Assembly (NCBI GenBank): GCA_032718475.1
Contig: JAUCBJ010006659.1
Span: 1-64,000 of the forward strand
Length of the DNA: 64,000 nt
Direction: 5' to 3'
DNA from: Nemertoderma westbladi
Lineage: Eukaryota > Animalia > Xenacoelomorpha
A program made the position numbers and the translations under genes. Below, in pieces: positions 22,301-64,000 of the stretch; the first letter of the stretch is position 1, and every line of letters begins with the position of its first letter. The notes beneath the pieces were generated by a model. The model was given only the letters and a program-made list of their open reading frames with translations. It ran no database searches and was not told where the DNA came from.

Positions 22301-22453
22301 TAAAGCCAAGCTTCTCAAGAAGAGGACAGCGGGAAAGACACTGACCGATTTTACTACGTTATCAAAACCTCAAAGGACGTAAGTAAATACAAGGCTCGAA
22401 CCAAAGATAGGAGAGAACAGGTTGCCAAAACTCCTCCTCAGTCTCCTAACAGA
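19315..22453 (+). pseudogene. gag: B1 gag N-terminal/central region, frameshifted near 20200, with stops at 22142 and 22301
   Basis: Coiled-coil Ala/Glu 39-bp repeat (20477-20670); Pao gag DUF1759-like motif KFNGDEMKWLPF...LSNGEKLRFL. Confidence 0.85.
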
Positions 22454-30643: not shown

Positions 30644-30712
30644 CTGTTTAGAGTATTTACGTATATTAGAAACTGTGATTTTGTATATTTATAGACTTGA
30701 ATCCCATTTTCT

Positions 30713-30720
30713 GGGAGCGG
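30713..30720 (+). other. B1 polypurine tract GGGAGCGG
   Basis: Immediately precedes LTR2; B2 has GGGAGTGG (59184-59191) and C has GGAGCGG. Confidence 0.75.
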
Positions 30721-38900: not shown

Positions 38901-41260
38901 TGTAAGGGTCCAGTAGTATACCGCTTACCAGATCCTAGTAACGATGTATCTTACTATGAGACTCTAGTAATGTATACGGGCTTGTACAGTATCTGACAAC
39001 AAATCCCAGTCCAGGATATCTAAACAAACAGATACAATACACAAACGACTACTGGCGAGGAACAGAGCCTAGTATCTATTCTATGTACGTGAGCGGGTCT
39101 AATGCCTACGTACTAGACAAAAGGATACCTGTCCTCTAACCGGTGAGGCAGATGTACAGTTACAGTAACAGACCAAACTCACGGGAAAACAATCCCCGCG
39201 CAGCGAATCCTAACTATCACTGACAGTCCTAAATACAGTAACTTGCCGCGGTGTGATTTATATGGTTTATATACGAACTAGGTGGTTAACAGACCTAGTG
39301 TAACAATGCTGATTACCCCTGTCTAAATCAGCCTAAAGTCGTGCCTAAATGTAACGATAACTGATCCCCCTGTACGAAATCAGTCTAAAGGGTCAGGCCT
39401 AAATGTAACAATACTGCTGGACAGAAATCAACAGTTTAATAACGAAAGTGAAATACTCCTTATTGCCGCAACTAAATCAGATCCTAATTTTACAAATACA
39501 GATAATTTCTACCTAAAATAATGTATAGTGCGCTATAGCTAGTAGAACTTTAAGGGCAATATGTTTTAGGGCGTGTGTGTGTGGGTGTGTTACAAATAAA
39601 ACAATTTCGTGTAATTCCTTTACTAGGTTTTAGTGATTTTCTGACTAAATGATACCGTGCGCTAGCTACTAAAATAAACTAGTCGCGTTTTGTAGAACTT
39701 TATACTCACGAATGACGTCAAAGCTCTCTCCTTCCTATCCACAACCCAATGGGCAACCACAGTGTTAGTAACTACACCCGTGATCGGCACTAATACCAGA
39801 TTCTGGTTGTAAGATAAGAATAGGGGTTAATCGCTACCGTACGTTAGCTGATCTGGTATACTAATTTAATTCTAGAACTTTGTTGCTGCGGTAGTTAGCA
39901 GCAATACCTATCAGTACGTGGCAAGGCGCGGTAGGATATTAATAAACCTCCCTAGGCCAAGCAGTGTGCCGGTAGCAGAAATGCTCCTTGCCTGATCAAA
40001 TAGCTAACTCCAGACAGGGGGGGGGGGTACTAATGTACGTTCTACAAAGCGAACCGGTACCAAACAGTCAGTGCTACGAATCACTAAATTATGGAACATA
40101 TGCTGTCTGTACCTAATATGTACTCGCGTACTGACAAATGGCAATAGTTCGCACCTGTAGGAAGTACAGGTTAACCCAGGGGTTCGTAGGACTGACAAAA
40201 GGGGGGGGTGTTTCTGTCTGAATATAATTATTTGATCCTAAATTTGCGGCGTCCAGTACGGCGTCACGCTTACCCTGATCTATAGGTCTTACGGCGGGCA
40301 AGGGCGTCGAACAAAGTCTTACCTTCTCACAAAGCGGGCGCTGCATGGCAAGTTGAGTATTTCGAAGGGGGCAAAGGGGGTGCGCGGTCGATCCAATGTG
40401 GGCGCTAGCGTGTTGTGGACATCTCTTCCCTGCGTTGCTTACGGCCTAACGGTCTAGGCTGCCATCTCCCTGATGTTTGGCTGTCCCAAAGTTGGACCAA
40501 AAGAAAACATGTTCAGGAATTTGCAGTATATTTACAGTTTTACAAAGGATTTATCAAATAAAGTTTCAACAAGAAACCAAAATAAACTAATAACAATTTA
40601 GGAATTTACAAGAGTAAGGTGGTGTTATTAGGGAGTTATAAGGTAGTTATAAGGGAGTTATAAGGTAGTTATAAGGTAGTTATAAGGTAGTTATAAGGGA
40701 GTTATAAGGTAGTTATAAGGTAGTTATAAGGTGATAACCGAAGGCAAACCGGCCTTTTTATACTAAATATTGCACATGGAAACTAAACAGAATTTTCCAC
40801 AGCTTCACATTTGAGCAATAAAGTGCTTCGTGCCCTATGATTGGCCCAGCTCATCGTTCAACGCAGTCCGGCCCTTACACTAATCTGGGACATGGAATCC
40901 TAACAGAATTTTCCACTGCCTCACATTTGAGCAATAAGATAATTTATGCCCTATGATTGGCCTGGCTCATCATTCGCTACGTTGTACGCTTCTCATTGGC
41001 CTACCAATTAGCACCAAACGAAAATAAATGGCCCCAAAATACAAATTTCCCGACTGGGATTCGAACTCGTAACCTATGTAATATAACCAACGCCTTAACC
41101 ATCTGACCACTACGCCACGAGAGTACCTAAGGGTTTTATGTGTACAAATATGAATAGGCATATTACATTACTGTAACTAAATCAAAATACGTCGGATTTT
41201 CGAAAGTTTTTACGTTAAAGTTAAACTACAAATGCTATCTTATAGTGAAATAATTCATCA
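38901..41260 (-). repeat. Element C 3' LTR (2360 bp)
   Basis: TGTAAGGGTCC...TAATTCATCA; PPT GGAGCGG (minus) at 41261-41267; contains a (GTTATAAGGTA)n array at ~40625-40735 and a duplicated ~115-bp CCAAT-containing block at 40770-40975. Confidence 0.95.
41048..41116 (-). promoter_or_regulatory. tRNA-derived Pol III internal promoter in C LTR (second copy at 58521-58590)
   Basis: A box TGGTCAGATGG (41099-41109) and B box GAGTTCGAATCC (41057-41068) at tRNA-like spacing; T4 run just downstream; no intact acceptor stem. Confidence 0.65.
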
Positions 41261-41880
41261 CCGCTCCATGAAAACAGTAAGTAAGACTGTTTTCACCAAT
41301 CGAAACATAAAGTATTTACAAACTACTTCTAAATCTACTGGTAGGGCCTAAAATATAAAATATAATCACTATCTAATTATTGCATACTTAATATTGCAGA
41401 TACGGCGTAAATACAATCGATCGTACATACAAATACAAATTTACGAATTAACTTTAGTGCCTAAAATACAAAAAAGGCTTTCGGTTATCAAGGTAAGCAA
41501 ATTAAACAAATCAGAACAAATAAATCAAAACAAATCAAACAAATAAATCAAACTCTTTCGATAAATCTTTATATATTGTAAATATACATAATAAACCTTC
41601 ACCAAATTAAATCAGTCCAAATATAATATAAACATAATGCGCTAATAACTTTCAATAATGTCCTCCTGACGATCTAATAGTTCGTCCTGCTGGTCTGGAT
41701 ATCTTCTCCTGAGCACCAATTGCTAACGGTAGGCTCGCAAGCCTTCCTTTCCATATCTCGCTCCTCCAAACCCAACATTCAAACATAATCCAAATATAAT
41801 GTCCAAATAAAATATCCAAATATAATATCCAAATAAATATCCAAATCGGTAGGCTCGCAAGCCTTCCTTCCACTCGCTTC

Positions 41881-44800
41881 CTATTCCTTCACTGAGCGGG
41901 CTCGTCCACGTCCTCTAGTGCGATTGGGGGGTGGTCGAGGTCGAACTGGGCTCGGACTTCGGCGTCGAGTCGTCGGTGGTTCCAAAACGCTAGGAAAGGG
42001 GACGACGGGAGTTTCGCACATCCGTCGTGCGCTTAATCCTCTAAATCCTCGTCCGATTCCAACTGTCGGCTTAACATCGGACCGAGTTTCTACAACGCTA
42101 GGAGGAAGTCGAAAAGGTAGGACCGTTCCGTCCGTTGACACCTCGCTCTCTGACGTCGTTTGAATCCTAATGGGTTCAGTCAAAGCGTATCCTGTCCCTC
42201 CGCGTGGTTCTCTAGCAAGGGAAACCGTGCCCCGAGTCATCCGGATTTGCGACTTCGATGTCGTCCTCTTGGCGACATTTACTACCTTCTTAATCTCTTG
42301 TCCGGCCTTCTGGGCTTTGAGTATACGAAATTGCTGATCATCCTGTGGGTGACGCGTCTTCTCCGCTAACGGCGTGGCCTTGAAGCCAGTCTCACGCAAA
42401 ACGTCGGTCTCGTCCAGAATGCACGAGGTTACGCGTTTGTGATAAAATGCGCTCCGGTATGCCCAAGCTATCGAATGCCAGGCTCCTCGATTCCGCTGTT
42501 CAACTCGCAGTTTATCGAATTCTCCGGCGGTAATCTTGTTCACCACAGTTTGAAAGTTCCAAGTATTCTTGTTGTCGGGGTGCACTTGTAAGAAATAGTC
42601 CCGCACAACTTTGAATCCACTGTCCAACGGCAATATATCCAATACCTCCAACAATTCATCGTACTGAGGCATAGCCGATACATATCCTTCCTTTGACATT
42701 ATGAGAGGGTTTACGGCCCAAAATCCCAAATGTGCTCTCATAGGGAAGCGGCGTCGCTGCGTCGATACATGCTCGTCTGCTAGGTCCTCCCAATGGTCGA
42801 ATAATTGTCGAACGATTTTGACTGACATGTGCTCATAGGGGACGTCTCTAAGTTGACATTCGGATGCCCTATGGCCCTTAATATTACAATAAGTACACTG
42901 CGCCACGAAACGCCAGCAAGTGTAGAAAGTGTGCGAACGTTGATCCCCGCACCAGTTGCATACTAAATCCGGTAGAGATATGTGCTTCGCTTCGCACTTC
43001 TTTGCGTGATGGCCAGTTGCTCCACATCTGCCACAAATAGTGTTGGCAGGATACCAAACTCGCTCATAGATGAGATCTCCGATGGGGCGAGCGCTACCAT
43101 CCACGTGATAATTCTCATCATCCGGGTCAGTCGGTATGTTCGTCTCCGTAGGTTGTACACAAACCATGGCATCGCTTTTCTCTAACTCGCGTATCTCAGT
43201 TCGCGTCTTCCTCGGAAGGTTCTCCTCTATTTCTATGAGTTGCCGTAACGGTTCGTCTATTAGCGCCAACTCGGTCGGATCCACATCGTCATGATGGGCG
43301 GTAGGCTCACGAGCCTTCCAGGATCCTTCCGGGCGTTCGAATTCCGCGTGGCGTTCCCCGTCATAGGGTACTAACGTTAACATCGACGGTCTGTCGACTA
43401 GACTTCCCGCGTGAGTGAGATAGACGTCCCTGAAAACGCTAAGTCCCGCTCGCGTGAAAACTTCGCAGTGCGCATCGGTGTTATAAAAGGGTTGGAGAAA
43501 TCGTCGGAATACATCGGTATGCGTCCTTCCTCCATCGTAAAAGGTATGTCCTTCGCCAAGACATAACGGGTGTCGCTTTAAGGTTCTGGATACTACGTCC
43601 GCGATGAAACAAACGTTAACCGAAGATTCTATCGCTAAATAGTATTGTAAGATTATCCGCGGAGGAGAAGTAATCGCCCAATACACGCAACCTCGCCACT
43701 TCAACTGTGACTCGAACTCGTTTACGCCGGGGGTATCTCCCTCTCCGTATACGTCCGTGTATTTGTTCCTCTTACTCTCCTTGTAATCCCAACTGAACAT
43801 TAGATATGAGATATAACCCGTTCCAGTTTTTAGCGTGTTATACTCCCTAAAGTATCCTTGCTCAATAGCCCAAAGCAACAATGGTCTATTATCCACGTAT
43901 GGCGTAGGCAATCGGTCCTCTTCCGTGGGCATCCCTGCAAAGTCGCTAATGAGGTCATCCCGTACACCGGATCCGATCTTGACGATGCTCTTATCCAACA
44001 CAACGTCTCGCACGGCCTTTGGCAACATCCTAGCTTCTATGCTACAAGCCAGGTCCATGGATTTAACTATCCGTTTTATCATCGCGTGTCTTTGCGTCGT
44101 TCCTTCCGGCATAGGCATCTTCCTATCACTCCTCTGTCGGCTGAAGACATGTAACACGCCATCTGGTGCTCTAATCTGTATAGTCTTTGAAGTGAGGCTT
44201 TGCTGATGGCTTCCTCCCTCATTATCGTAAAACATATATCCATTCTCTTTCAGAGATCGGCTAGTCACGTCCCAATCGTCGAGTAAATCGTCGGTAGGTT
44301 TCCAAATTCTCCCGATCGACTTTTCGTCATCGAAACTAATAGGTTTACCGGTCCAATTGGTCGCGATATCGGTGTCGGTCTCAAACGTCCCAACTCCGAT
44401 CCATAATCGAATCGTTTTCGTCAGATATCCTCGCAAGATACAAGGTGCGATATCCGTCCCCGCGCGATCCACTTCCTTAAAGTCCGTGATATGTGGAGGC
44501 ACGTTGCGTACGATTTTTTGAACTATTACTTTACACAACTCGGTTGATTCTAACACATCACCGAAGGTAACCGATGGGAGGAAATCCAGGTTCGAGATGA
44601 TCTCCGGGTGTTCAACTATAGGGATCTCGTAAGTTGTCTCCTTCCGGGTCGGTATACTAATAGGAAAACTAGTTGGTCTCGCAACCGGTACTATCGCTCT
44701 AGTAGAATGGGGCTGAGGTTCTCGCGTCATCTCGACATGAGGTATCTGTAGTCTCTGCGACAAACGCTGAGCAAAGGTGATACTATCGAAGAGCTCGGGT

Positions 44801-45636
44801 GTCATCTCCTTGGGTTCGGTTTGATCGTGGGATATCCAATAGAATGGTAGGCTCGCGAGCCTTCCGCCGAACTCCTCGATCTCGCCTTTCTCATACGCCT
44901 TGTACGCCCTGTAGAAGCTCAAAGCTTCCCGTTTCTCTTGTGTCGACTTATTAGACTCGTCCACTACCATGCTGTAGACGTCTGGTTCGACTAATTTAGG
45001 TTCGTAAATAACGATCTCACCCGCGTTCGGTCCACTCATTTTAAATGAATGATACGGATTTGTCAAAGGGTATCCGCCTTCTTGGTAACGTAGACTTTGG
45101 TGGTGTGAATATCGCGCTAATATCGGCTCGGGGTTCTCCGAGTTCAACCGCATAGGAATCGCGTTGTCTTGCTCGCGCATACACGCTCCACATTTATAAA
45201 ACAGTTTGTATACGGAAAACGCGTCCTTGGTCTCTGGATCCGCTCCTCGAGCGCGTCTATAAAGATGCATTCCTTCAAATTCGTCTCTAGCTGCAGGTAA
45301 GGGTTCGTTTACCGTCAAATATTGCAGCGTATGATACAATCGGCGTATTTCGGTGTCTGGATCCTCGCAAATGTCGCTAGCGTCGCATAACGCATCGTAG
45401 GGATATAACGCATTGTATTCCGCGCGTAATTCCTCCGTTCTTTTGTTGTATGCGTCCAACCGCTGTCGCGTAACATTTGGGTCCGCCTTGGATTTAGCGA
45501 GCTTGGCCGTACTCCTAGCCATACTCTCCACTCCAAACACACTAAAGTTTTTAGCTCCATAACGATTGAATGGCGCCTGGTGCTCTTGTTCTTGCGTAAA
45601 CCCTTGACGTAACTCTTTATACATCTTCTCCGCCAT
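41881..45636 (-). CDS. Element C ORF3 (1251 aa): DEDDy/WRN-like 3'-5' exonuclease domain + three CCHC-type zinc knuckles + basic C-terminus
   Basis: ISFDDE (ExoI), TIQIR, LPKAVRDVVLDKSIVKIGSGVRDDL (ExoII), W...LQYYLAIE (ExoIII-like); CGRCGATGHHAKKC, CNWCGDQRSHTFYTC, CTYCNIKGHRASEC; uninterrupted ORF. Confidence 0.8.
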   Translation of the reverse strand: MAEKMYKELRQGFTQEQEHQAPFNRYGAKNFSVFGVESMARSTAKLAKSKADPNVTRQRLDAYNKRTEELRAEYNALYPYDALCDASDICEDPDTEIRRLYHTLQYLTVNEPLPAARDEFEGMHLYRRARGADPETKDAFSVYKLFYKCGACMREQDNAIPMRLNSENPEPILARYSHHQSLRYQEGGYPLTNPYHSFKMSGPNAGEIVIYEPKLVEPDVYSMVVDESNKSTQEKREALSFYRAYKAYEKGEIEEFGGRLASLPFYWISHDQTEPKEMTPELFDSITFAQRLSQRLQIPHVEMTREPQPHSTRAIVPVARPTSFPISIPTRKETTYEIPIVEHPEIISNLDFLPSVTFGDVLESTELCKVIVQKIVRNVPPHITDFKEVDRAGTDIAPCILRGYLTKTIRLWIGVGTFETDTDIATNWTGKPISFDDEKSIGRIWKPTDDLLDDWDVTSRSLKENGYMFYDNEGGSHQQSLTSKTIQIRAPDGVLHVFSRQRSDRKMPMPEGTTQRHAMIKRIVKSMDLACSIEARMLPKAVRDVVLDKSIVKIGSGVRDDLISDFAGMPTEEDRLPTPYVDNRPLLLWAIEQGYFREYNTLKTGTGYISYLMFSWDYKESKRNKYTDVYGEGDTPGVNEFESQLKWRGCVYWAITSPPRIILQYYLAIESSVNVCFIADVVSRTLKRHPLCLGEGHTFYDGGRTHTDVFRRFLQPFYNTDAHCEVFTRAGLSVFRDVYLTHAGSLVDRPSMLTLVPYDGERHAEFERPEGSWKAREPTAHHDDVDPTELALIDEPLRQLIEIEENLPRKTRTEIRELEKSDAMVCVQPTETNIPTDPDDENYHVDGSARPIGDLIYERVWYPANTICGRCGATGHHAKKCEAKHISLPDLVCNWCGDQRSHTFYTCWRFVAQCTYCNIKGHRASECQLRDVPYEHMSVKIVRQLFDHWEDLADEHVSTQRRRFPMRAHLGFWAVNPLIMSKEGYVSAMPQYDELLEVLDILPLDSGFKVVRDYFLQVHPDNKNTWNFQTVVNKITAGEFDKLRVEQRNRGAWHSIAWAYRSAFYHKRVTSCILDETDVLRETGFKATPLAEKTRHPQDDQQFRILKAQKAGQEIKKVVNVAKRTTSKSQIRMTRGTVSLAREPRGGTGYALTEPIRIQTTSESEVSTDGTVLPFRLPPSVVETRSDVKPTVGIGRGFRGLSARRMCETPVVPFPSVLEPPTTRRRSPSPVRPRPPPNRTRGRGRARSVKE

Positions 45637-46368
45637 CGTATACGAATATATGCGGTTACATATCGTTACGTTTCTACTAGATGAAGCACAAAATAGAGGT
45701 TAGATGTGAGGTGACTTAGAGTTTGTCGGCTTTTGGCTCAACTCTGCTCTAAACCCCAACCCATTTTGCCTAATGATTTCGGGTTCGCGTGATTTCGCAC
45801 TGGCTCCTAATCCAAAAATGTGCCGATAAAAAACGAATTCCGGGTAAACTAGCCGCGAGTCTAAAATACTCACCTTTTAATTTCCCAAACTACGTTTCCC
45901 AAGAAAAATAATGCAGTCGAGAATTAATTGGTCTAAATAATAGTAGACACGACTACGTAGAACAAGGCCGATTTTCTTTTTCCAAAAAAATTTATCGGTA
46001 GGCTCGCAAGCCTTCCATCCGCTCTTGTCCTCCCCAATTTTAATTTTTATCTAGCTGTATTCTAGAATTTGCTTTCACTGGAGAATCGTTTTTCTTAAAT
46101 TTAAATCCAAATAAATGGATTTGTCTAATAATTTTTGAAAAATGTCTCACTTGTGGGTTCCAAGTGGAATTCCATTCCTACTGTACACACAATCCCGCTC
46201 CTATGTGATACATAAGGGTACTACCCTCCATGTTCACGTATAAAGACAATGGAATTCCACCGCTGTCTCTATCTACAGTGAAGAGGATTACAAATGCACG
46301 TACAGTAATACAAATACAAATAACTAAAATACAGTAGGTCTATGTGGCGGCCGACAAAGGTCCCACAT

Positions 46369-49300
46369 CTATTTACTAATATTGGGTGGAGATTTGTAGT
46401 CTCCCGTCTCGTTTCTAGTCTCCTCAAGGAGTACGAGACGTTGTACAGGCCTATCTACGGTACGTCCGTCGATAGTCCGTACAGTAACTGTCCTCACTAC
46501 ACCAGATGTAGGGTGCGTGGTCAAAATGACTCCAGTCAGCCAAAACCGTCTTTTCAGATTGGCTTCAGCCAATAAAACATGGTCACCACGTCTTAAACTT
46601 CGGGTATTTAGATACCAAGAGGTTCTGGTCGAAATAGAGGGCAAATAATATTTCTGCCATATTTCCCAGAATTTATTTGCAAGCAATTGAGTGATTTTCC
46701 AAGCCTTGTTGCCGTATCCGTCACTATCAACGGGTACCGAAATGGGCAACAATGTCGTCGGCGCCTGCATAAGCAGGTGCGCTGGTGTCAAGGCAAACTG
46801 TACGTCGTTATTGTCTGGGATCAAAGCGATCGGTCTGGTATTTAAGATTGCTTCGATTTCTATTAGTAACGTCGTCAGTTGGTCGTCTGTCAAGATGTGT
46901 TGCGTCGGTACGACTTTAGCCATAGCTGTCTTTATTGAGCCAATCAGCCTTTCCCAAATGCCGCCTCTCCACGGACTGTCTGGAGTATTGAAAAACCAAA
47001 CAATACGGTGAGGACGTAGTTCCTCGGAATTCTGGTTTTGGTCCAATTTTCTCAAAGCTCTGGTTATCTCGTTCCGTGCACCCACAAAGTTTGTCCCTTG
47101 GTCGCAGTATATGGATTTGACCAATCCACGTCTAGCGATAAATCGCCGTAAGGCTAGGATAAAGGCATTGGTGGTCAAGTCTGTCACTCGCTCTATATGG
47201 ACAGCTCTGCTGGCCATGCAAGTGAAGATCAATCCCCAACTTTTTACCTGTACCCTTCCGCGTTTCGCGATTATGGGTCCAAAACAGTCTATCCCTGTCT
47301 CAGTGAAAGGGGGTCTAAACGCCTGTAATCTAGCTAATGGTAGTTCACTCATTTCTTGGTGTCCTATCCTCGCGTGCACCTTCTTACAAATAATACAGTT
47401 CCGTGTTACCGAACTCAGTGCCTTACTAGGTCTAATCAGTACAAACCTCGAACGTAAGTGTGATAGACAGTGGTGTCTACCTACGTGTTTGAGTTGTACG
47501 TGTGCGTCCAGTATCATAGCGCGCTGTAATTCATGGTGTTGCGGTATGATGATAGGATACCTAAAGTCAAGTGCAAAGTCGATGTTTTGGAGTCTGGACT
47601 TGTGACAAAGTAAGCCCCGGTAAATAATCGGACTCCAACTCAAAATCGGTGAAGACTTAATCTGTTTAACTTGTTTGATCGCTGTGAATTCGCGTGCGAA
47701 ATATCGCAATTGATAATGTCTAATGATATCAACTTCACAGTGGCCAATTTCCTTTAAGGTAAGTCTTCTAGGAAAGTCGCGTTTGCCTCTGGCATATTGT
47801 CTCAATCGTTTGAGCCATGCTAACTTGCGGCATGCGTCAGTCCATGATCTAGTTAGGTTCACTATCCTGTCAACGTAAGTGTTAGTGACGTCATCGGGTA
47901 AGGTGTAGTCGTAGTGTGGATACTTGTCTGGACTTGGTAGGCCCACGGGCCTTCCGGTAGGTTTGTCTGAGTCCCCAAGTACGTCAATCTCTATGGTCTT
48001 ACCTTTGCCGTCCGCACCTAATGTGTCGACTGGCAGTAATGGTTTCAACTCTACAGTGTCAGTGTGTTCCTGTGAGCCTGTAAGCTTCCTAACCTTAGTC
48101 ACACGTTTACCTGTAGGTAAGTCAAGTACCTTCTTCGAGCGGAGTGTAATCCCTGTGGCCACACCTCTGTCGTCCAAAGAAGTCAAATTCGGTAAATCTC
48201 TAAAAGTCCGCTCCAATGGGTCTTCTAATGGAGTGTCTAGTAGACAGTCTGGTGAAGCGTCTGGTGAACAGTCTGGTGAGACGTCTGGTGAGACATAGCG
48301 CGGAACATCCGGCGAAATGTCCTGTCGTCGGTCCCAAAGTCTGTCTAGCGTAACTTCTGTCAGAAAGTCTGGTTCAAAGTCTGGTCTAAAGTCTGGTGGA
48401 CAGTCTGTCGAGATGTCTGGTGGAAAGTCTGGTGAGACGTCCGGTAGACATTCTGTCGAGAGTTCCATCAAACAATCTGGCGAATAATCCGGAGAACAAT
48501 CTGGTGTCGCTTCTGGTGAATAGTCTGGCGAGTAATCTGGTGAACGATCCGGCGAAACGTCTGGTGAAATCTCCCACGGAACATCCGGCGAAGGATTCGT
48601 ACAAGCGTCTGGTCGAGTGTCTGGCGAGACGTCTGGCGTAATGTCAGGTCTGGCGTCCAGGTCATCAGATTTCGTCCGTCCTTTTTTCCTCTTGACCTTG
48701 GCGTTGGCTTTCGCTTTAGACTTGACAACCTTGTCGAGTTTTATCTCGGCACCCTCTGGTATGGTGTTGGTTGTCGCGTCGAATAACGGTGGCCATTCGT
48801 CTGATGGTCGCTGTAGGAAATCGGGTCCTCTAAACCAAAAGGATTTATTGTCCGGTTTACAAAAGTCAAGTGGTTGCATCCCCCGTGACGCGATGTCAGC
48901 TGGGTTCAGCTTCCCTGGACAGTGACGCCAATCTTGTTTGAGCGACCGGTCTAATATTTCAGCCCGTCTGTTGGCTACGAAAGTCTTGAACTCGAATGTT
49001 TCGTTGTTTATGTACCAAAGTACCAACGTCGCATCCGTCCAATATGTGACCTTCAAGTTAGCCTCCAGCTCGCGTTGAACTAGACTGACAATATCGGTGG
49101 ATATCGTGCCGGCTTGCAGCTCCCCACGAGGTACAGTCATATACTTCAATGGCATTGTTCTAGCCCTTGAAGTAACGAGAGATACATCGTAGCTGTCCGA
49201 TGTCACTTGTCGTCTAAGGTATAAAGTAACCCCCAATCCATCCTTGCTAGCGTCACTAAAGCTGTGAAGCTCTAAATCGGCAGGAAAGGTGGTTTGCAAA

Positions 49301-50637
49301 GGAAAGTATACCCTTGGTATGGTATAGTCTTGTAGGAACGTCAGTTGGGCTTCCCAGTCCCTCCATCGCTCAGCTAACTTTTCTGGGATGGGATTGTCCC
49401 ATTCCAGTCCGGCTTGCCAAATGCTGCGGAGTATGATCCTAGCATGTAGGATCACTGGACTAATGAAACACAATGGGTCATACAATCGACTCATGGTCGA
49501 TAAGCAAGTCCTCTTAGTGAGAGGTCTAGTCTGGTCGTTGGACCTTACACGTACCCTAAAATTGTCGGTGTTAGGGTCCCAACTAAGTCCTAATACTTTG
49601 GTCGTCGGCAGAGGTTCTAGGTCTAAGTCCAAGTCACCTCCACTGCGATCCATCGGGTCAAATGAGTTCACCAGTTCGGGTTCGTTGGAAGCGAACTTCG
49701 TCAGGTGAAATCCGCCCTCAGCGAGACAATCCTGGAGTTGGTGTGCTACGGTTGTAGCGCGCTCCAAGGTGTCACAACTCTTGAGGCCGTCATCCACGTA
49801 GAAGTCTCGTTCCACGGTCCGAACTACTTCAAGGTCAAATTGGTCTCGTCTGTCCAATGCTGTCTGCTTCAATGCGTACATGGTGCAGTTGGGGCTGTCC
49901 CTGGCTCCGAATACTCTTACCTGCATTTGGTAAGTTTCTGGCGGAAGTTGTAAGTTTCCGTCCGGATACCAAAGAAACCTTAAACTGTCCCTGTCCCGCT
50001 CCAAAGCCTTAACCTGGTGAAACATGGCCTCTACGTCACAGGTGAAAGCCACTTTGCGTTGTCTAAAACGCATTAGGACTCCCATGAGGTAATTATTCAT
50101 ATTCGGCCCGTCCATCAGTTCGCTGTTCATAGACATCCCTTGGTAAAGCGCAGCGCAGTCGTTGACTACACGCACCTTGCCAGGTTTGTCCGGGTGTCGA
50201 ACAAAATGATGTGGCAGGTAATATGTCTGGTCTATGGTTACCTCGGGATTTAACATCCTAATGGCGTATCCCTTTTGGAGATACGTCTGAAGTTGTGCAT
50301 TGTATTGCATATGGGCCATCTCGTCTCGCAACAATCGCTGCCTTATTGATTTGAGTCGCCTCAAAGCAAGCGGGTAATTGTTAACGAGTTTAGGTTGTCC
50401 ATTGCGCCACAACATACCAACCTCATAGTGGCCATTCGCGGTCTGGCGAATGGTATCTCTCATAATATTTAATGACCGTTTTTCCTGTTCTGACATAGCG
50501 GTCTCGTAACTACCGGGTTCTGCTGAGTCCTGTTCCAACCATTGTATGGTCCGTTCAGTCAGCAGTCGGTCAAGCGCTGCTTGCACTGCGCCATGGTCCT
50601 CGTCCACGTCTTCGTCCGCTGCGGTGGCTAGTGTCAA
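46369..50637 (-). CDS. pol: Element C RT-RNase H-integrase (1422 aa), with a PDxS repeat linker
   Basis: YYLPHH, CDVEAMFHQV, YVDD, LHSFSDAS, GIDCFGP, YCDQGTNF, GGIWERL. Confidence 0.95.
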   Translation of the reverse strand: MTLATAADEDVDEDHGAVQAALDRLLTERTIQWLEQDSAEPGSYETAMSEQEKRSLNIMRDTIRQTANGHYEVGMLWRNGQPKLVNNYPLALRRLKSIRQRLLRDEMAHMQYNAQLQTYLQKGYAIRMLNPEVTIDQTYYLPHHFVRHPDKPGKVRVVNDCAALYQGMSMNSELMDGPNMNNYLMGVLMRFRQRKVAFTCDVEAMFHQVKALERDRDSLRFLWYPDGNLQLPPETYQMQVRVFGARDSPNCTMYALKQTALDRRDQFDLEVVRTVERDFYVDDGLKSCDTLERATTVAHQLQDCLAEGGFHLTKFASNEPELVNSFDPMDRSGGDLDLDLEPLPTTKVLGLSWDPNTDNFRVRVRSNDQTRPLTKRTCLSTMSRLYDPLCFISPVILHARIILRSIWQAGLEWDNPIPEKLAERWRDWEAQLTFLQDYTIPRVYFPLQTTFPADLELHSFSDASKDGLGVTLYLRRQVTSDSYDVSLVTSRARTMPLKYMTVPRGELQAGTISTDIVSLVQRELEANLKVTYWTDATLVLWYINNETFEFKTFVANRRAEILDRSLKQDWRHCPGKLNPADIASRGMQPLDFCKPDNKSFWFRGPDFLQRPSDEWPPLFDATTNTIPEGAEIKLDKVVKSKAKANAKVKRKKGRTKSDDLDARPDITPDVSPDTRPDACTNPSPDVPWEISPDVSPDRSPDYSPDYSPEATPDCSPDYSPDCLMELSTECLPDVSPDFPPDISTDCPPDFRPDFEPDFLTEVTLDRLWDRRQDISPDVPRYVSPDVSPDCSPDASPDCLLDTPLEDPLERTFRDLPNLTSLDDRGVATGITLRSKKVLDLPTGKRVTKVRKLTGSQEHTDTVELKPLLPVDTLGADGKGKTIEIDVLGDSDKPTGRPVGLPSPDKYPHYDYTLPDDVTNTYVDRIVNLTRSWTDACRKLAWLKRLRQYARGKRDFPRRLTLKEIGHCEVDIIRHYQLRYFAREFTAIKQVKQIKSSPILSWSPIIYRGLLCHKSRLQNIDFALDFRYPIIIPQHHELQRAMILDAHVQLKHVGRHHCLSHLRSRFVLIRPSKALSSVTRNCIICKKVHARIGHQEMSELPLARLQAFRPPFTETGIDCFGPIIAKRGRVQVKSWGLIFTCMASRAVHIERVTDLTTNAFILALRRFIARRGLVKSIYCDQGTNFVGARNEITRALRKLDQNQNSEELRPHRIVWFFNTPDSPWRGGIWERLIGSIKTAMAKVVPTQHILTDDQLTTLLIEIEAILNTRPIALIPDNNDVQFALTPAHLLMQAPTTLLPISVPVDSDGYGNKAWKITQLLANKFWEIWQKYYLPSISTRTSWYLNTRSLRRGDHVLLAEANLKRRFWLTGVILTTHPTSGVVRTVTVRTIDGRTVDRPVQRLVLLEETRNETGDYKSPPNISK

Positions 50638-53600
50638 TGCGTCTGGTAGGCTCGCAAGCCTTCCGGTGTCACTAACGGCGTCGAATTGTCGTGCGGCGGT
50701 TTGACAACTTCTTGATCTATCGGTAGGCTCGCAAGCCTTCCAAGATCAACGACCGGTGTCGAAGCCTGGTGGGTGGGGTCAATGACCTTCGGATTTTTCG
50801 GTAGGCTCGCAAGCCTTCCAAAATCCTCGTTCATCGAGTCATCCACGGCAACAACCCTTTGGTCTTCAGTAGTCAATACAACCTGGTCTACTGCAAGTAG
50901 TTGTAAGTCAGAGGTCCGTATGGTCGTGTCCAGATCGGTTACGTCAGTATCGGTGGCGTCTGCGTTAGTGACGCAAGTCTGTCGTAGTGCCGTCCGTACA
51001 ATTGGACCACAGGAGTGTGAAGGAGAATTATCTATCGTGTTAGTCAATAAACTACACGTACTCAAAACGTCGTCCTCCTGGTCACTTACCTCTAGTGAAC
51101 GTATTGGTGCTCTAGTATACCAACCTATGGGAGTTCTACATGCGTAGGGGTTGCCGCTGTAATAACAGATGGGCGTGTCTCCCATACCTGATGTAAGTTA
51201 AACTGGTCTGTCCCAATTAACATCGCAATGGAACGATAATTAACAGGACATTCCGGTATTCCAAGGTGTCAGAAATACTTACGATCTTCCGGTGATTGCT
51301 CTGGCACAGGGCCAAGCAAGTTACTAAAGTCCTTCGTAGCTGCAAAGGTCAAATTTCTTACCGGAAGTAATGAGCGCTCCTCCTTGCTGTGTTCCGCTTT
51401 GGAAAGAAGAGTGTCTAAAGTTAGTTTTACTCTCGTCACAGGTATCGCTCTCTTACCATGCATGCTGCTTACAGTATACTGAGCAGTCTTACCTTGACTC
51501 ATGTCCGTAACTACGTCGGCTACTTGTTCGTCGACATAACTATGCGATGACGCAGAGTCTAGGATGGCGTATATACGCTTGCTCCCTCGGGTTCCGGTAA
51601 TCTTTATAGGAATCACGCTAAACCCTTTCAGTTGGTTCTGTGTGAGGAGCGTTATCGATGGCTGTTCCTCACCTGCATGCACGTAAAAGGTGTCGTCTTC
51701 CTCCTCGTCCTCGTCCGATGATCCTGACTGATCCATACAGTCGGTATAAAAGGTACGGATCTCGCGCGGCGCACGCTCCTTATAAAGCGCGTCGCATCTA
51801 GCCGCTTTATCTGGATGCTCTCGTCGAAAGCGTCTGGTCGGAGTATGACTGGTTGTGTGAAGCAACGTGTCATGGTTACGTCCACACAGAGAACATGTAT
51901 CATCGCTCGGGCAATCCTTCCGGACGTGTCCTGGCTTCATACATCTCCAACAGGAATCTAGAGATCGGATTTGGAGTCTCCTCTCCTCGATCCCTAACTC
52001 TTTAAAAGCGCGACATCCACGTAGTTTATGTCCGCCTTGGTTTCTGCCGTTCCGCTTGCAGTATGAGCATCCCACAAAGCCCGCCGGCAACTGTTGTCGT
52101 GGCTGCGTGGTGCCGATAGGCGTCAGAACTTTAGAAGTCTCAGTAGGTGTGGCGTAAGTAATGGCTTTCGCGTTCGTCGGAAATGGTTTAGTCCGATTCG
52201 GCGCAGAAACAGGTATCCCTTCCGCCGCGATATGGTGATCGGTATAGTTCGATCGAGTCTCGATCACGGCCTCCCGTGAAATCAGTTGATAGACATCGGT
52301 GAGTTTTAATAACCCTCCGGCCTCGTCGCGCTGGTACTCGATGCGTCGCCATTCTCTTCGTAGTCGATGGTGAAGTCGACCAATTATTCGAATGAGAACC
52401 ATCGGTGCGTTAGCGTACTCGAGTTGTCCAATGGACCGTAAAGTCCCTATAGCGTTCTTTATTTCGTCCGCGAGTCGTAAAAGGTCGATCGGTCTCGAAA
52501 TGTTGCCTCCTCTGCAGGGGTCTTCGATAATGGATTTAGCCATGGCGACATTACCGCCGTAAATTGAATACAAACGGTCGTATGCCAACTCAAAGGCATC
52601 GGGAACACCAATAAAGGTTTCCGCTAATCGTTTCAGCTCACCAGACAGGACTTGGAGCAAGTAATTAAACTTCTCCGTCGAGGTGAAAGCACACTTAGCG
52701 ATCTGGGACTCTACGTAGTCTACCAGTGTGCGCCAGTGTTTCGCGTTGCCAGAGAACTTCGGCGGTTGCTGTGCCGGTAATCCGTGTCTAGCCGCGAATT
52801 TCGCAATCTCGCTAACCAAATCCAACTGTCCGCATCCCTGTTCGGCGGCGTCGTCCAGTCGCTCCCTTCCGCGCGTTGTTCGTCGGTAGGAATTATTAAC
52901 GGGATCTTCTTCTCGATGTGTCGGAGTCCGTCTAGTCTCCTGTTCTCTCCTCGGTGGTCGATGTTGTCTAGGTTGTTCCAACTCCACGCTGGTTCGTGAT
53001 CGATCCGACGGTTGCGCTTCGAGTCGCTCTTCTATCTGAGCTAGTCGGTCCGCTACAGGTCGCATTATTTCGGCGAGTCTGTTGGTGCTGATCGCTTCCG
53101 CTGGTTGCAACATGGGTTTCTGTTGGGGTGTTTCTCGTGGAGGATTGTCGATATAGGGGTTCGTCGATCGTTCCTCTCGTTTATAATCTTCCGCCGCTCC
53201 AGTACGGAATATTTCCCGTTCCGTCGACTCCGAGTCACTAGATGAGTCGCTGTTGTCCGGATAAGGTGGCTGGCGGGTTCGTGTCCGGCGTATTATTCTT
53301 GGTCTCGTCCGTTGTGGTCCGGAATCTACGGCTCTCCGTTGTTCGGTAGGCTCGCAAGCCTTCCACGAAGTCGTAGGTCTCGCTATACGTTGTCCGATCC
53401 CGTGGGTACTATCCACATCCATCCTCCTCCGTAGTTCGGTAGGCTCGCAAGCCTTCCACGAAGTCGTAGGTTGCGTCGAACATTGTGTCAACGGTCGAGT
53501 GAAATAGTCGGGTTTCGTAGTCGGTCTGTAAATAACTGGATTTGCACAGCACGTCACAGGTTTAACTTGTAATGGTTTACTCACCTGTTTAATGGTCATA

Positions 53601-55258
53601 AATGCAGGTTCCTCTCTTCCTACAAGTAGACTACGACTTACTGTAGGTGGACTAGTTACGTTACCTGCTAAAATTGGCGATGAAGTCGCCCTAGGTTGCG
53701 GTATTTCTGTCACAACAAACCTGTTGCCTTGCGTCGAACGCACAGGCGTTATTTCCTTAGGTTTCGTAACGAAGACCGGTTTCATCGGAGTCGTGGGTTT
53801 GAGCATAGGAATAACTTGGGGAAAACGTTTACAGTAATCCTCGACGAACTCCTCTCCTCGATCTATCGCTCCCACACTTCCTTCCTCGATCCGCTTCTGT
53901 ATTCCGCGATATCGAGCTTCCATACGATCCAGGGCAGACAAGTCGTGTCCAGTTCGCGATCTTATAGATCTATCTCTCGCGTCGAGTTCGAGGTCCGCTT
54001 GCGCGTTCGCTGTCTCGCGCGATCTACGATTCAATTCGAACTGTAGTTGCATCTCCCTTTCACGTCGATCCGCTACTTGTTGTTGTGCCGCTAACTCCGC
54101 TTCCTGTATAGCTAAACGTGCGTTTATTTGTCGCGCCTCCAACTTAGCGCGAGCGTCGGATGCTGCTTTCTTCCGTGCTAATTCGTCGGCTGCCGTCTGT
54201 CGTGCTAACTCGTCCGCTGCTGCTGCCGCGGCCGCTTCTTGCGCTAAGTTTTCCTCTAGTCTGCGCATTTCCGAAGCTTCGAATTCGGCTTGCGCCTTGA
54301 GTTGCGCAATTCTTGCCTCGTCCTCTCTATGTTGTTTCTCTCCCTCGATGGCGATCTGTGCCATCTGGTGTTGCGCTTCTTCCTCGGCGACTTGTTGTCG
54401 GAGTGCAACCTCCTGTTGTTGTCGAGTAATTCCAGACGCTGTTCTACTAACGTCGCCAACGTCGCCAACGTCGCTCCGTATGCTAACGAACGATCTATCC
54501 AGTGGTGGATGTTGGTAGGCTCGCGAGCCTTCCGTAGTGAGACCTTCCGTCGTCCCTCGCGGTTCGACTTCCGGTTCGTCGATCGGTACGCCGCATCTAC
54601 GAAGAAAATTGGTCAGCGTTTCCAACCTTCCGTCCAGGCAGTAGAGTTCTTCTTCCTCTTCGGGTTGTAACAACGCGTCCGAAACTGACTCACCTAGCAG
54701 TTGGTCAAACTGCTCCTGTTGAGCCAATCTTATTACTGACTTAAACTGGATAATGCTTTCTCTCGCACTTACTAATTTATCTACTATCTTTACCTGAGTA
54801 AAGTTGTCGCCACGCAACTCTGCAAGTTCGTGCAAACCTTTAAGTTTATCTACGGAGGCATGTATCCTACTTTCTATTCTTACCTGTAAGGTGTAGAACT
54901 CGTATCTCGACATCGGGGCGGTTAACTCGCGTAAAACGCGAAAACCTTCTCCGAGGTTCCGAGTAATCTGGGCCATGTGTCCTCCTATACTTCTAATAAC
55001 GTTCTCCTGGCTTCCAGTCGAACTTACCATGTCCGGTTCCCGTGATCTAGTCTGCGGGACGGTAAGGAAATCTTCGATTCTGCCGTCGCCACGCGTTGCG
55101 GCTTCCGGTATTTCCGTTCGGGGTACCGGCGACGCAAGCGGTGTGACATCGGTGGAATCTCGGGTTCTCCTTCTTGGTTCGTCTATTGTCGATCTGTCCG
55201 GGTCGCACGAGTCATAGTCGGTAGGTGGGTATCTCGTCGAATGGGGTGTGTCACTCAT
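50634..55258 (-). pseudogene. gag: Element C gag + protease (1329-aa ORF 51269-55258, TGA at 51269, then frameshifts near 51180 and 50670)
   Basis: PKFSGNAKHW DUF1759-like region; knuckles CSYC..H..C, CWRCMKPGHVRKDC, CSLCGRNHDTLLH; ILDSAS; MLIGTD follows the stop in frame. Confidence 0.9.
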
Positions 55259-56210
55259 GTCTTATTATATACGTCAAGTACGGGTAATAAAATGTCAAAG
55301 TGTCTGAATGTTGAAGTGTCAAACTTACCTTGGTATATGTAGTACATATATACCCTAACCGGTACAAATAAATCAACAAGTCAGAATGTCGAAATGTCAA
55401 AATGTCGAAATGTACAAATGTCAAACTTACCTTGATATATATATATATCATATATATACCCTAACCGGTACAAATAAAACTAACAAGGTATATAATAAAA
55501 TAAGTAGTAATCTAGCCTACCGGCTAAATTTGTACGAATAAATGAGATAACGGTATACGTTAACAAAATATAGATCAACAAGTACAAACAATAGGCCAAA
55601 CAGCAACGTCTAACGGGAAAATAAGTACCAACAACACTACTAATAGACAGTGAAACCAACAAATTTTGAGTACTACTGTGCTTTCTTAAGTTTGAACGAC
55701 GCGAGTCGTAAAACTTATGTTCCTTTGATCTTCCAGTCGTACAAATTCCCAAATACAAACCGGACGTGGGTCTTTCCGTTTTTCGGCGGCGCGGACGATT
55801 TTATTGTCTCCCAAACTTTGCGAAAAGCGGTCTAATCCTCGAAGCGGTCCAGAAATGAGTCCTTGAGTCCTGAAAAGGTCGAAGGTGAGAGTTTTACTTC
55901 TACGCTTACGAAAATCTTCCTAGGTACCGATACAAATTGGTCTTTAAACCCTATGTACCTTTTCAAGTACCGAAAAGTAACACCGCACACACACGGCGTA
56001 AAACAAAGTGCTACAAACTAACTGTTAGCTAGTCAAATATTAAATACGAAAGTACTAGCTACCCTAAAAGCCTACTGAAGCAGGGGACGTTCTAAATTAC
56101 TAAAATTACTAACCTTAAATTTTAAATATCTCCTACTTTCAATAGCTAACAATATTTATCTATATCTCACTTTAAATGCGCACGCACTTTCAGTTAAGAT
56201 ATTTAATAAA

Positions 56211-56373
56211 TACTTCCTACTGTAAGGGTAGGAATATTTTACACTACGATAGAAGTACTATACACTAATTTCAGAATTTGTATAATATACTTCCTACTGT
56301 AAGGTAGGAATATTTTACACTACGATAGAAGTACTATACACTAATTTCAGAATTTGTATAATATACTTCCTAC
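56211..56373 (-). repeat. 76-77-bp tandem repeat reiterating the C LTR end + PBS; non-tRNA PBS GTAGGAAGTA at 56364-56373
   Basis: TACTTCCTAC-TGTAAGG occurs at 56211, 56288 and 56364. Confidence 0.85.
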
Positions 56374-58734
56374 TGTAAGGGTCCAGTAGTATACCGCTTA
56401 CCAGATCCTAGTAACGATGTATCTTACTATGAGACTCTAGTAATGTATACGGGCTTGTACAGTATCTGACAACAAATCCCAGTCCAGGATATCTAAACAA
56501 ACAGATACAATACACAAACGACTACTGGCGAGGAACAGAGCCTAGTATCTATTCTATGTACGTGAGCGGGTCTAATGCCTACGTACTAGACAAAAGGATA
56601 CCTGTCCTCTAACCGGTGAGGCAGATGTACAGTTACAGTAACAGACCAAACTCACGGGAAAACAATCCCCGCGCAGCGAATCCTAACTATCACTGACAGT
56701 CCTAAATACAGTAACTTGCCGCAGTGTGATTTATATGGTTTATATACGAACTAGGTGGTTAACAGACCTAGTGTAACAATGCTGATTACCCCTGTCTAAA
56801 TCAGCCTAAAGTCGTGCCTAAATGTAACGATAACTGATCCCCCTGTACGAAATCAGTCTAAAGGGTCAGGCCTAAATGTAACAATACTGCTGGACAGAAA
56901 TCAACAGTTTAATAACGAAAGTGAAATACTCCTTATTGCCGCAACTAAATCAGATCCTAATTTTACAAATACAGATAATTTCTACCTAAAATAATGTATA
57001 GTGCGCTATAGCTAGTAGAACTTTAAGGGCAATATGTTTTAGGGCGTGTGTGTGTGGGTGTGTTACAAATAAAACAATTTCGTGTAATTCCTTTACTAGG
57101 TTTTAGTGATTTTCTGACTAAATGATACCGTGCGCTAGCTACTAAAATAAACTAGTCGCGTTTTGTAGAACTTTATACTCACGAATGACGTCAAAGCTCT
57201 CTCCTTCCTATCCACAACCCAATGGGCAACCACAGTGTTAGTAACTACACCCGTGATCGGCACTAATACCAGATTCTGGTTGTAAGATAAGAATAGGGGT
57301 TAATCGCTACCGTACGTTAGCTGATCTGGTATACTAATTTAATTCTAGAACTTTGTTGCTGCGGTAGTTAGCAGCAATACCTATCAGTACGTGGCAAGGC
57401 GCGGTAGGATATTAATAAACCTCCCTAGGCCAAGCAGTGTGCCGGTAGCAGAAATGCTCCTTGCCTGATCAAATAGCTAACTCCAGACAGGGGGGGGGGG
57501 GTACTAATGTACGTTCTACAAAGCGAACCGGTACCAAACAGTCAGTGCTACGAATCACTAAATTATGGAACATATGCTGTCTGTACCTAATATGTACTCG
57601 CGTACTGACGAATGGCAATAGTTCGCACCTGTAGGAAGTACAGGTTAACCCAGGGGTTCGTAGGACTGACAAAAGGGGGCTGTGTTTCTGTCTGAATATA
57701 ATTATTTGATCCTAAATTTGCGGCGTCCAGTACGGCGTCACGCTTACCCTGATCTATAGGTCTTACGGCGGGCAAGGGCGTCGAACAAAGTCTTACCTTC
57801 TCACAAAGCGGGCGCTGCATGGCAAGTTGAGTATTTCGAAGGGGGCAAAGGGGGTGCGCGGTCGATCCAATGTGGGCGCTAGCGTGTTGTGGACATCTCT
57901 TCCCTGCGTTGCTTACGGCCTAACGGTCTAGGCTGCCATCTCCCTGATGTTTGGCTGTCCCAAAGTTGGACCAAAAGAAAACATGTTCAGGAATTTGCAG
58001 TATATTTACAGTTTTACAAAGGATTTATCAAATAAAGTTTCAACAAGAAACCAAAATAAACTAATAACAATTTAGGAATTTACAAGAGTAAGGTGGTGTT
58101 ATTAGGGAGTTATAAGGTAGTTATAAGGGAGTTATAAGGTAGTTATAAGGTAGTTATAAGGTAGTTATAAGGGAGTTATAAGGTAGTTATAAGGTAGTTA
58201 TAAGGTGATAACCGAAGGCAAACCGGCCTTTTTATACTAAATATTGCACATGGAAACTAAACAGAATTTTCCACAGCTTCACATTTGAGCAATAAAGTGC
58301 TTCGTGCCCTATGATTGGCCCAGCTCATCGTTCAACGCAGTCCGGCCCTTACACTAATCTGGGACATGGAATCCTAACAGAATTTTCCACTGCCTCACAT
58401 TTGAGCAATAAGATAATTTATGCCCTATGATTGGCCTGGCTCATCATTCGCTACGTTGTACGCTTCTCATTGGCCTACCAATTAGCACCAAACGAAAATA
58501 AATGGCCCCAAAATACAAATTTCCCGACTGGGATTCGAACTCGTAACCTATGTAATGTAACCAACGCCTTAACCATCTGACCACTACGCCACGAGAGTAC
58601 CTAAGGGTTTTATGTGTACAAATATGAATAGGCATATTACATTACTGTAACTCAATCAAAATACGTCGGATTTTCGAAAGTTTTTACGTTAAAGTTAAAC
58701 TACAAATGCTATCTTATAGTGAAATAATTCATCA
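56374..58734 (-). repeat. Element C 5' LTR (2361 bp)
   Basis: Only a handful of differences from 38901-41260 seen by eye. Confidence 0.95.
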
Positions 58735-59191
58735 GTTGAAGAGCCGGATAAATGCAGCGACTTCACCAAATACCTGGAATTCTTGAGAGAAACCTATCTC
58801 GATATTACCAGTCAACAGAATCTAGAAACTCGATATCCTCAAGGTATACATCATGACCGCATGGTAGAACTCAAACGGCTCTATTCCACTATGATGTATC
58901 TTACCGCCGATCGACCGCTACCTGTTGTACCGGATAGCTTCGAACAGATGGAGGAATATTGTAAGCTGTAAGCCTACACCTTCTGATGCAATCATATTGC
59001 ACCCTTCACCCAGGAGTTATAGCCCTCCTAGTAAAGTGGCTCCCCCCAAAGAGAAAGGGACTCTTGCTAGCTTTAAAAAACTGCGTAAACGCCGTCCACG
59101 CAAGACAGACTAACTGTTTAGAGTATTTTTATATTTTAGAAACTGTGATTTTTTATATTTTATAGAATTAAATCCCATTTTCTGGGAGTGG

Positions 59192-60371
59192 TGTAAAAGC
59201 TTTTGTGGGATATAACTGGCCCTTTTGCTTCGCAATCCAGTTTCCCTCAATGCGCTCAAATACTCTAAAGAAAATCTCCCTAACTCAAATGATGCAAGCT
59301 ACCGGCTGATTGGCTGATTTGCTGTACGTATGGCCTCTTTGTTCTGTTCGATCAACCAACCAGAGCAAGGTCAACCAAGCAGAGTGATTCATCCTGTGTG
59401 TTGGCTAAGGGCTGCAAAAACCCTAAAGGTTCGGCATTTAGACATTGGTGGAATCTGTGGAATATGGAGCTCTGCCAATGAGAGCTTTTCCTCTTTGTGT
59501 TGAAAGCTACCTGCAACAGCTCACAGGGTTCAGTGTGTTGGTTTTTCCAGAGCCTAGAACATCGGCTATGGAATTATTCTGAATTATTCCAACATTAGAA
59601 CGACTTTAATTATAAGAACACATAACTGTTACCGGAACGGTACGGAACGGTACGGTATGGTACGGTACGGTACCTACTGCTGTATTGCACATTATTTACT
59701 GCTATTTACTGTTTGTTGTTAATTGTATCAGTTGTTTACATATTGTTATTTGGAGAATAACGATAAACGATCAGAAACCCCGATCTTCTTGATACACTAA
59801 GGTTAGAGAGACCGGTTACATATAGCAATTGCGACTTATATTATCGTGGTTTGTAGTGAATTGAATGCTATTTTATAGGCCCTACAAATGTCGGTTGCTA
59901 TTCTCTTTATATATGATTAAAATCAGTGACTATCGGCAATTCAGTGTGCAGCGGTGTGCAATAGTCTGTATGTGCTTGTCCGCGTAACAAAGCATCTCCT
60001 AAAGAATGCGCCTTATGTGTAACTTATAATCCATTCCGTTGTGTTTAGTGTAAGCCATAGCTCTGTTTATATAGATAGAGCGCCACGTCCTAAAGGAACT
60101 GCTAATATTTCCCGAAAGTGAATGATATTTGTCAGGAATTATATTAACGATCAATCGAATAGTACGGTAGGCCTGCACCGCAATCAAATTAAAGCATCCG
60201 AATCCAGTCTCCCGGGTATATCCAGCGGGTGAATGGTCGCGCATAGACTGGCTTCGGCTAATGTTGGATTTATTTGTGTCAAATACTTGTCATAGGCTAA
60301 AGTCGATTTATAACCTAGAAGACATATAGAATTGGCGGGTTAAACTGCCAAAGGTCTTAAAAGCGCGAACA
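59192..60371 (+). repeat. B2 3' LTR (LTR3, 1180 bp)
   Basis: TGTAAAAGC...GCGCGAACA, followed by TSD ACTGG; preceded by the PPT. Confidence 0.93.
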
Positions 60372-63750: not shown

Positions 63751-63760
63751 CAATCTTCAC
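63751..63760 (-). other. Element A non-tRNA primer-binding site GTGAAGATTG
   Basis: Abuts the 5' LTR end; exact complement within the LTR at 63947-63956 and 9899-9908. Confidence 0.65.
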
Positions 63761-64000
63761 TGTGACGGGATCAAGGGATCCCGACCGGTTGCATAGACTA
63801 CGCGTCACCGTAGCTATCAGTTTGTTGTTATCTCTCTGATACTTTGAGTGTTAATACTGAATACAGGTGAACTGAATAATAGCACAATGAAAGGTAGCGG
63901 ATGTTATAGCTGTATAGGGTACCGGTATGTAGATATATTGATGACGGTGAAGATTGTCACCGGTCTGCACTAAAAACCAATAACTGAATAACTGATTTAC
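63761..64000 (-). repeat. Element A 5' LTR (partial, truncated by window end)
   Basis: Matches 9701-9952 with several substitutions and an indel. Confidence 0.9.

Follow-up and report, generated by a model that had tools for sequence, protein, structure and literature searches.

Candidate self-primed BEL/Pao retrotransposons in Nemertoderma westbladi, with a primer predicted to be spliced in most of their relatives

How minus-strand synthesis is primed in BEL/Pao retrotransposons whose primer-binding site (PBS) does not look like the complement of a tRNA is the question raised by a stretch of 64,000 nucleotides of Nemertoderma westbladi DNA (contig JAUCBJ010006659.1, positions 1 to 64,000; hereafter the window). 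A prediction made from the sequence alone had described in it three BEL/Pao families with unrelated LTRs, each with a PBS complementary to its own LTR, and had proposed that the 5' end of the transcript folds back to serve as primer. The present analysis examined the elements themselves, their promoters and folding, and their relatives in metagenomes and genome contigs.

Nested BEL/Pao elements in the window

Four LTR elements (A, B2, B1 and C) are nested within the window, and by their proteins all four are BEL/Pao (Table 1). The predicted assignment of A, B1 and C was borne out by Pfam domains, with Peptidase_A17 found in A, B1, B2 and C, DUF1759 in A, B1 and C, and both DUF5641 and Integrase_H2C2 in B1, B2 and C; the RT motif reads YVDD or YMDD. 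The PR-RT-RH-IN domain order expected of Belpaoviridae is present, as are TG...CA LTRs, a target duplication and a polypurine tract, the 5' end of A lying beyond the window. An 18-nt PBS matching a host tRNA 3' end was not found in the window elements, which were filed as BEL/Pao because of their proteins, despite the non-tRNA PBS. No chromodomain, by which Ty3/gypsy chromoviruses are recognised, was matched in them by Pfam. Best protein matches were 40-47% identical, the named ones coming from corals, echinoderms, molluscs and fish among others.

Table 1. Positions of the elements in the window and of the parts discussed in the text
Feature	Position	Strand	Remarks
Element A	3' LTR ends 9701	-	5' LTR cut by window end; interrupted by B2
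A 5' LTR	63761..64000	-	cut by window end; predicted start 63993; anti-PBS 63947-63956
A non-tRNA PBS	63751..63760	-	
A 3' LTR	9701..10880	-	start approximate; complement copy 9899-9908
A 3' LTR promoter motifs	+1 at 9945		TATA-Inr-DPE match
A pol	11817..15794	-	several broken frames
Element B2	15795..60371	+	target duplication ACTGG; inserted in A; own PBS region absent
Chimeric 5' LTR	15795..17004	+	B2-like up to 16530, B1-like from 16535
B2-type motif in chimeric 5' LTR	16225-16235		
B2 3' LTR	59192..60371	+	motif at 59622-59632
B1 internal part	17005-30720	+	held inside B2
B1 non-tRNA PBS	17005..17016	+	
B1 gag, pol, ORF3 pieces	19309..30643	+	pol 22304-27430; ORF3 pieces 29036-30643
B1 3' LTR	30721..31929	+	anti-PBS 31144-31155
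Element C	38901..58734	-	BEL/Pao, 19.8 kb; 5-bp target duplication GTTGA; inserted in B2
C 5' LTR	56374..58734	-	2361 bp; 99.7% identical to C 3' LTR
C 3' LTR	38901..41260	-	complement copy 40157-40166
C non-tRNA PBS	56364..56373	-	directly adjoins LTR
C anti-PBS	57631..57640	-	10 nt, 12 with one G-U pair; within local hairpin
C predicted core promoter	57662..57705	-	Inr A at 57667, weak TATA
C 76-bp tandem	56206..56382	-	LTR end and PBS three times; self-folding
C gag and pol	46369..55261	-	gag 51269-55261, pol 46369-50745, short frame 50634-51197 between
C ORF3	41881..45699	-	1272 aa; no Pfam family; CCHC-like motifs

The LTR ahead of the B1 PBS is a B2/B1 chimera, the switch falling between 16530 and 16535, which makes it most likely that recombination between LTRs removed the PBS that B2 once had. 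In C, the gag and pol frames carry DUF1759, Peptidase_A17, Integrase_H2C2 and DUF5641, and the 76-bp tandem, whose units contain PBS-complementary pieces and form hairpins, possibly arose from repeated strand-transfer slips. Between RNase H and integrase, the pol of C contains about 300 residues (47815-48708, minus strand) and includes 12-bp repeats (48242-48461), whereas that of B1 contains about 100. Both C and B carry an extra ORF after pol (41881-45699 on the minus strand and 29036-30643 on the plus strand) with a shared CCHC-like domain at 25% identity; for this ORF3 neither a Pfam family nor true relatives were found, with one weak match among 1.84 billion representatives and a sole Atlas lead at 0.81. 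Elsewhere, the window holds a 68-bp satellite of about 80 copies (3184-8572), an 18-bp tandem array of 38 copies (9019-9701) that abuts the end of the A 3' LTR, and a degenerate, MITE-like inverted repeat (1597-2088), whose weak match to MIR2646 in Rfam falls far below the family threshold.

PBS, LTR complement and predicted transcript start

In A, B1 and C alike, the first bases after the 5' LTR find a complement in the element's own LTR that begins exactly at the junction base and extends over 10 nt in C, 10 nt in A and 12 nt in B1. Complement length peaked at this offset, as predicted; over the other offsets from -30 to +29, the longest match was 9 nt for C and 8 nt for A, while B1 had one unrelated 10-nt match at +16. 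The ten motifs listed in the original prediction were all located where it had placed them, the letters given for A and C being those of the minus strand, which is their sense strand. Mature tRNA 3' ends would all require a PBS beginning with TGG, and no TGG was found 0-5 nt from the LTR end in A, B1 or C, again in line with the prediction. When LTRs were resampled from a Markov model, a match at offset 0 recurred in 11/3000 cases for C, 0/3000 for A and 3/3000 for B1, and one of at least 10 nt at any offset from 0 to 5 in 25/1000, 3/1000 and 13/1000, respectively. The 12-nt match of B1 is with the B1 3' LTR; in the chimeric 5' LTR, the B2-type motif pairs from offset 1 over 10 nt. Because the B motif is a near-palindrome, it is also a direct repeat with one mismatch. 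All three elements show the complementarity of at least 10 bp to the region 0-5 bp after the 5' LTR that is used for predicted self-primers in the accessible text of PMC6317226.

No BLASTN similarity was shared among the A, B and C LTRs, confirming that they are unrelated. The trait has nevertheless probably been inherited rather than invented three times, because the RT-RNase H regions of A, B and C are 31-43% identical and because B and C have ORF3 and the polypurine tract in common.

A tRNA gene search of the window at default settings found none, and an Rfam search of the window gave no relevant family. Near the start of the C LTR lies a tRNA-like stretch with A- and B-box-like motifs (58520-58597, minus strand; copy at 41046-41123). 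Some Cer elements of C. elegans have reportedly been proposed to encode their own tRNA-like primer; as a primer of this kind the C stretch was rejected, as it showed no pairing with any PBS and emerged only when the ARAGORN threshold was lowered, as one of 47 calls that were mostly noise.

The position of the transcript start was examined with animal core-promoter consensus motifs. The Inr and TATA motifs predicted for A and C were present. In A, the best site is 63993/9945, where Inr, DPE and a TATA box with one mismatch are in register; it places the primer end at +47, and a leader from this predicted start pairs with the PBS with a probability of 0.93 in the folding model. The best site in C, at 57667, places the primer end at +37 and is tied with another candidate; this spot could equally be read as a splice acceptor, the next 6 nt of which pair with the PBS. 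The best core-promoter match of B1 (31166) lies 10 nt downstream of the complement and a TATA-only candidate of B2 (59642) lies 9 nt downstream, so that the complement would fall in U3 if these matches are real; a block conserved between B1 and B2, which runs from 35-38 nt upstream of the primer end as far as that end, allows the opposite reading. The proposal of a self-derived primer of about 40 nt is therefore plausible for A, where three motifs agree, and weaker for C; the matches in B, if real, would be a case that the prediction itself had named as refuting.

Folding of C yielded the long-range duplex (0.58-0.62) only for an RNA that begins with the complement and is truncated behind the first PBS; if the whole PBS array is present, the value is 0.001 or less. 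The equilibrium model thus gives no long-range duplex, since the complement lies in a hairpin and the three PBS copies fold with neighbouring sequence. That hairpins around the complement are special was not supported (z from +0.05 to -2.75, one of six below -2).

It had also been predicted that intact B2-type elements would carry a matching PBS, which calls for a G in place of A at 17005. This variant was not listed at a 4% threshold in four sequencing runs over 16960-17060; a minority form could hide there because depth is diluted by contigs ending with the LTR (in run X1, about 385,000 at 17005 against about 60,000 inside the PBS). A T>C change at 17013 made up 32% of depth in run X1 and was also seen in X6, a run tentatively taken as RNA; it would break one pair unless those copies co-vary. 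Loose ends in these runs showed other B-family PBS versions. Over 55900-64000, tens of thousands of short contigs from runs X1-X3 align with many variants, and the BEL/Pao families there appear abundant and diverse in the runs' source organism.

Split complements and co-variation in relatives

An alignment of C, B1, B2 and 28 homologues, used as query, retrieved 79 metagenome loci and 12 genome-contig loci, 91 in all; viral contigs were also searched and gave no relatives. The 12 genome-contig loci (L080-L091) are animal-type BEL/Pao elements within contigs labelled as bacterial genomes, presumably host DNA contaminating prokaryote bins. For 19 loci, the LTR end was set independently of any match, 16 by two-LTR divergence, L023 by the contig end and L020 by likeness to L023, the end of L071 being uncertain. 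Unsplit complements in the relatives were mostly short, yet they began just 3' of pyrimidine-rich AG motifs. When any GT and any AG were allowed, a perfect complement of 10-15 nt appeared across the join in 16 of the 19, and with the donor chosen by pairing alone, GTAAG was the single best in 13 of these 16 and GTGAGT or GTACGT tied for best in the other three. Under strict splice sites, among which GTACG was admitted as a donor once L060 was known, 15 of the 19 (9/13 families) had a complement of at least 10 nt solely across a GT-AG join inside the LTR, compared with 1 of 326 swapped LTR-PBS pairs; controls shifted by 15-30 nt gave at most 6 nt. As for the four misses, L007 failed the pyrimidine filter alone, L046 and L071 had unsplit complements and L080 had no match. 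The original prediction was open to refutation by a lack of complementarity across relatives; the same signature was found, and its form across a predicted splice junction in most of them is something that the prediction had missed.

These comparisons bear on whether the matches arose by chance or are palindromic binding sites acting at the DNA level, an explanation that the swap control largely refutes and that is very improbable. The near-palindromic B motif and the long C LTR, with its 2.5% chance of 10 nt at any offset from 0 to 5, are what speaks for it, set against three matches at offset 0, the excess of true over swapped pairs, and relatives' complements that exist only across GT-AG joins. 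Within the window, a spliced primer tried for C gave a 9-nt join, which was reached by 31/1500 shuffles and by 1/34 other PBS sequences; for A and B a spliced primer was rejected, strict sites giving 4 nt.

A blind scan of the 91 loci allowed 45 to be assigned (38 split, 6 unsplit and 1 with no complement) and left 46 not assignable; the 26 of the 45 that were added owing to their match serve as description and not as a test, because they were chosen by it. No TGG was found 0-5 nt from the LTR end of any assigned relative. The 33 family representatives had 24 different PBS cores, at offsets of 0-5 nt. In 29 of the 33, AC is the predicted 3' end of the primer, as in A and C, the B1 primer ending in AT. 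Sister elements differed on both sides of the pairing: between L086 and L087 the LTR changes from CAC to TAA and the PBS from GTG to TTA, and two-sided changes affect one pair in L046/L071, three in L049/L066 and five in L041/L053.

The pairing could instead be a real RNA structure that serves packaging, dimerisation or translation control, with a host RNA (a tRNA fragment or another) priming elsewhere. The case for priming in the window comes from sequence, several of the relatives' sites share with the B site the palindromic form typical of dimer signals, and in fungal GalEa elements a hairpin of unknown role replaces the PBS according to the accessible text of PMC5445492, the C PBS likewise forming a hairpin. 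This explanation is nonetheless quite unlikely, as all assigned cases have the pairing begin 0-5 nt from the LTR end, the very place at which minus-strand synthesis has to begin; the 24 cores cannot be one tRNA, none starting with TGG; and the tRNA-like stretch of the C LTR, aligned to the start of the PBS, pairs over no more than 3 nt.

Beyond the point where the primer is predicted to end, 27 of 30 relatives have a poly(A) signal, against one such signal in 5690 nt of predicted introns, as would be expected of a location in R. The joined form was found in none of 18 LTR copies (9 pairs), and both splice sites were exactly kept in both copies in 7 of the 9 pairs. A second helix upstream beat 90% of shuffles in 10 of 33 relatives (binomial p ~0.001); in the window it was not seen in A or B1 and was not significant in C. 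The primer might also be the element's own RNA but not its 5' end in cis, coming from the 3' LTR copy, a dimer partner or a short (spliced) LTR transcript. The latter, if it ended at the poly(A) signal, would contain the junction, and an origin other than the 5' end in cis would also suit the B promoter matches downstream of the complement and the C duplex, which spans 1.26 kb in cis and loses to local folds. A, however, folds well in cis from its predicted start, and cutting the 3' copy would presumably remove the R required for strand transfer, so that a primer of such origin is considered unlikely.

Split and unsplit forms were placed on a quick IQ-TREE phylogeny (41 rows, SH-aLRT only, midpoint root), from which 54 near-copies or unassigned loci were left out. 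The distribution needs three changes; the six unsplit relatives are nested among split ones, two unsplit groups falling within a starred set of which split elements are also part. B and C join each other (92) apart from the relatives, and A forms a very long branch of unsure placement. Loss of the intron via a spliced 3' copy would be a simpler mechanism than gain, the midpoint-rooted tree itself giving no direction.

A model of self-priming and its place among known systems

The BEL/Pao elements of the window probably prime minus-strand DNA with their own RNA in the manner of Tf1. The comparison supports the proposed self-priming well, through non-TGG sites, matched LTR complements and two-sided changes in diverged relatives, and priming itself is what we infer from these. 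The transcript would begin inside the LTR, upstream of the complement, with some 47 nt in A and 37 nt in C from the start to the 3' end of the complement, and the leader of this transcript would pair with the PBS. A nuclease, probably the element's RNase H as in Tf1, would cut the RNA where the duplex ends on its 3' side, in most cases behind AC, leaving an end for RT to extend. During plus-strand synthesis the primer sequence would then be returned to the PBS, and the two sides would stay complementary while families diverge. For most relatives, there would be no primer until an LTR intron had been spliced out of the 5' copy, the unspliced 3' copy passing the intron to progeny, and the unsplit form of the window would be the intron-less state of the same system. 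The wider reading is that a broad BEL/Pao branch abandoned tRNA priming, that the host spliceosome removes an intron from the 5' R region to create a PBS complement of 10-15 nt while the 3' copy keeps it, and that splicing of the 3' copy repeatedly yielded unsplit forms such as A, B and C; the balance tips slightly in its favour.

In the ICTV account of Belpaoviridae (PMC8742986), genomes measure 4.2-10 kb and LTRs 0.2-1.2 kb, and the 18-nt PBS serves tRNA-Arg or tRNA-Gly; a tRNA-Tyr site is given for Achilles, also BEL/Pao, in the accessible text of PMC4580426. The window elements resemble the family in the Gag-PR-RT-RH-IN order, DUF1759, Peptidase_A17, DUF5641, TG...CA LTRs and 5-bp target duplications, but are without a tRNA site, and C has 2.36-kb LTRs, a length of 19.8 kb and an orphan ORF3. 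In Tf1, as described in the accessible text of PMC7175516 and bioRxiv 2022.12.06.519325, the first 11 nt of the RNA are the primer, released by an RNase H cut from a three-duplex structure. Like Tf1/Tf2 and the Tf1/sushi group of Ty3/gypsy chromoviruses in those sources, the window elements lack a tRNA site and have by the LTR a PBS complementary to about 11 nt of their own LTR transcript. Unlike Tf1 as presented there, they belong to another superfamily, with Peptidase_A17, and the primer in A is predicted at +38 to +47 and not in the first 11 nt; the central duplex alone is consistent in the window, the flanking helices of the pretzel being weak or absent, and a predicted intron interrupts the complement of most relatives. 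By inference, then, they would work like Tf1 without being members of Tf1/sushi.

Self-priming has also been predicted from sequence for the Tcn1 (Ty3/gypsy) and TAR/Houba/Osr-1 (Ty1/copia) lineages of plants by the same rule of at least 10 bp that A, B1 and C follow; those are plant gypsy and copia elements, and the accessible text of PMC6317226 mentions no BEL/Pao case or spliced primer. The Conserved Hairpin Site of fungal GalEa Copia elements similarly puts a non-tRNA, partly palindromic sequence in place of the PBS, but its authors found no LTR complement, judging by the accessible text of PMC5445492, whereas the window elements and their relatives have a co-varying one. No paper on self-priming or a spliced primer in BEL/Pao was found in the openly accessible literature searched. 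The accessible text of PMC3118150, PMC8220671, PMC554778, PMC4580426, PMC3286476, PMC3601003, PMC13524379, PMC5443660 and PMC5445492 held nothing on BEL/Pao self-priming, and the word 'tRNA' was absent from the accessible main text of PMC3118150 and PMC554778.

The spliced primer in the relatives would be the part most surprising to a specialist, and the model gives short, exact predictions of primer length, cut site and splice junction. If it is true, tRNA-based PBS filters in LTR annotation miss such elements, and silencing by tRNA fragments at the PBS could presumably not reach them. Through the split form, reverse transcription would depend on host splicing for its start, and it would become clear how an intron inside an LTR can survive retrotransposition. 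Self-priming would gain a third superfamily of LTR retrotransposons, and the standing description of Belpaoviridae as tRNA-primed would be corrected.
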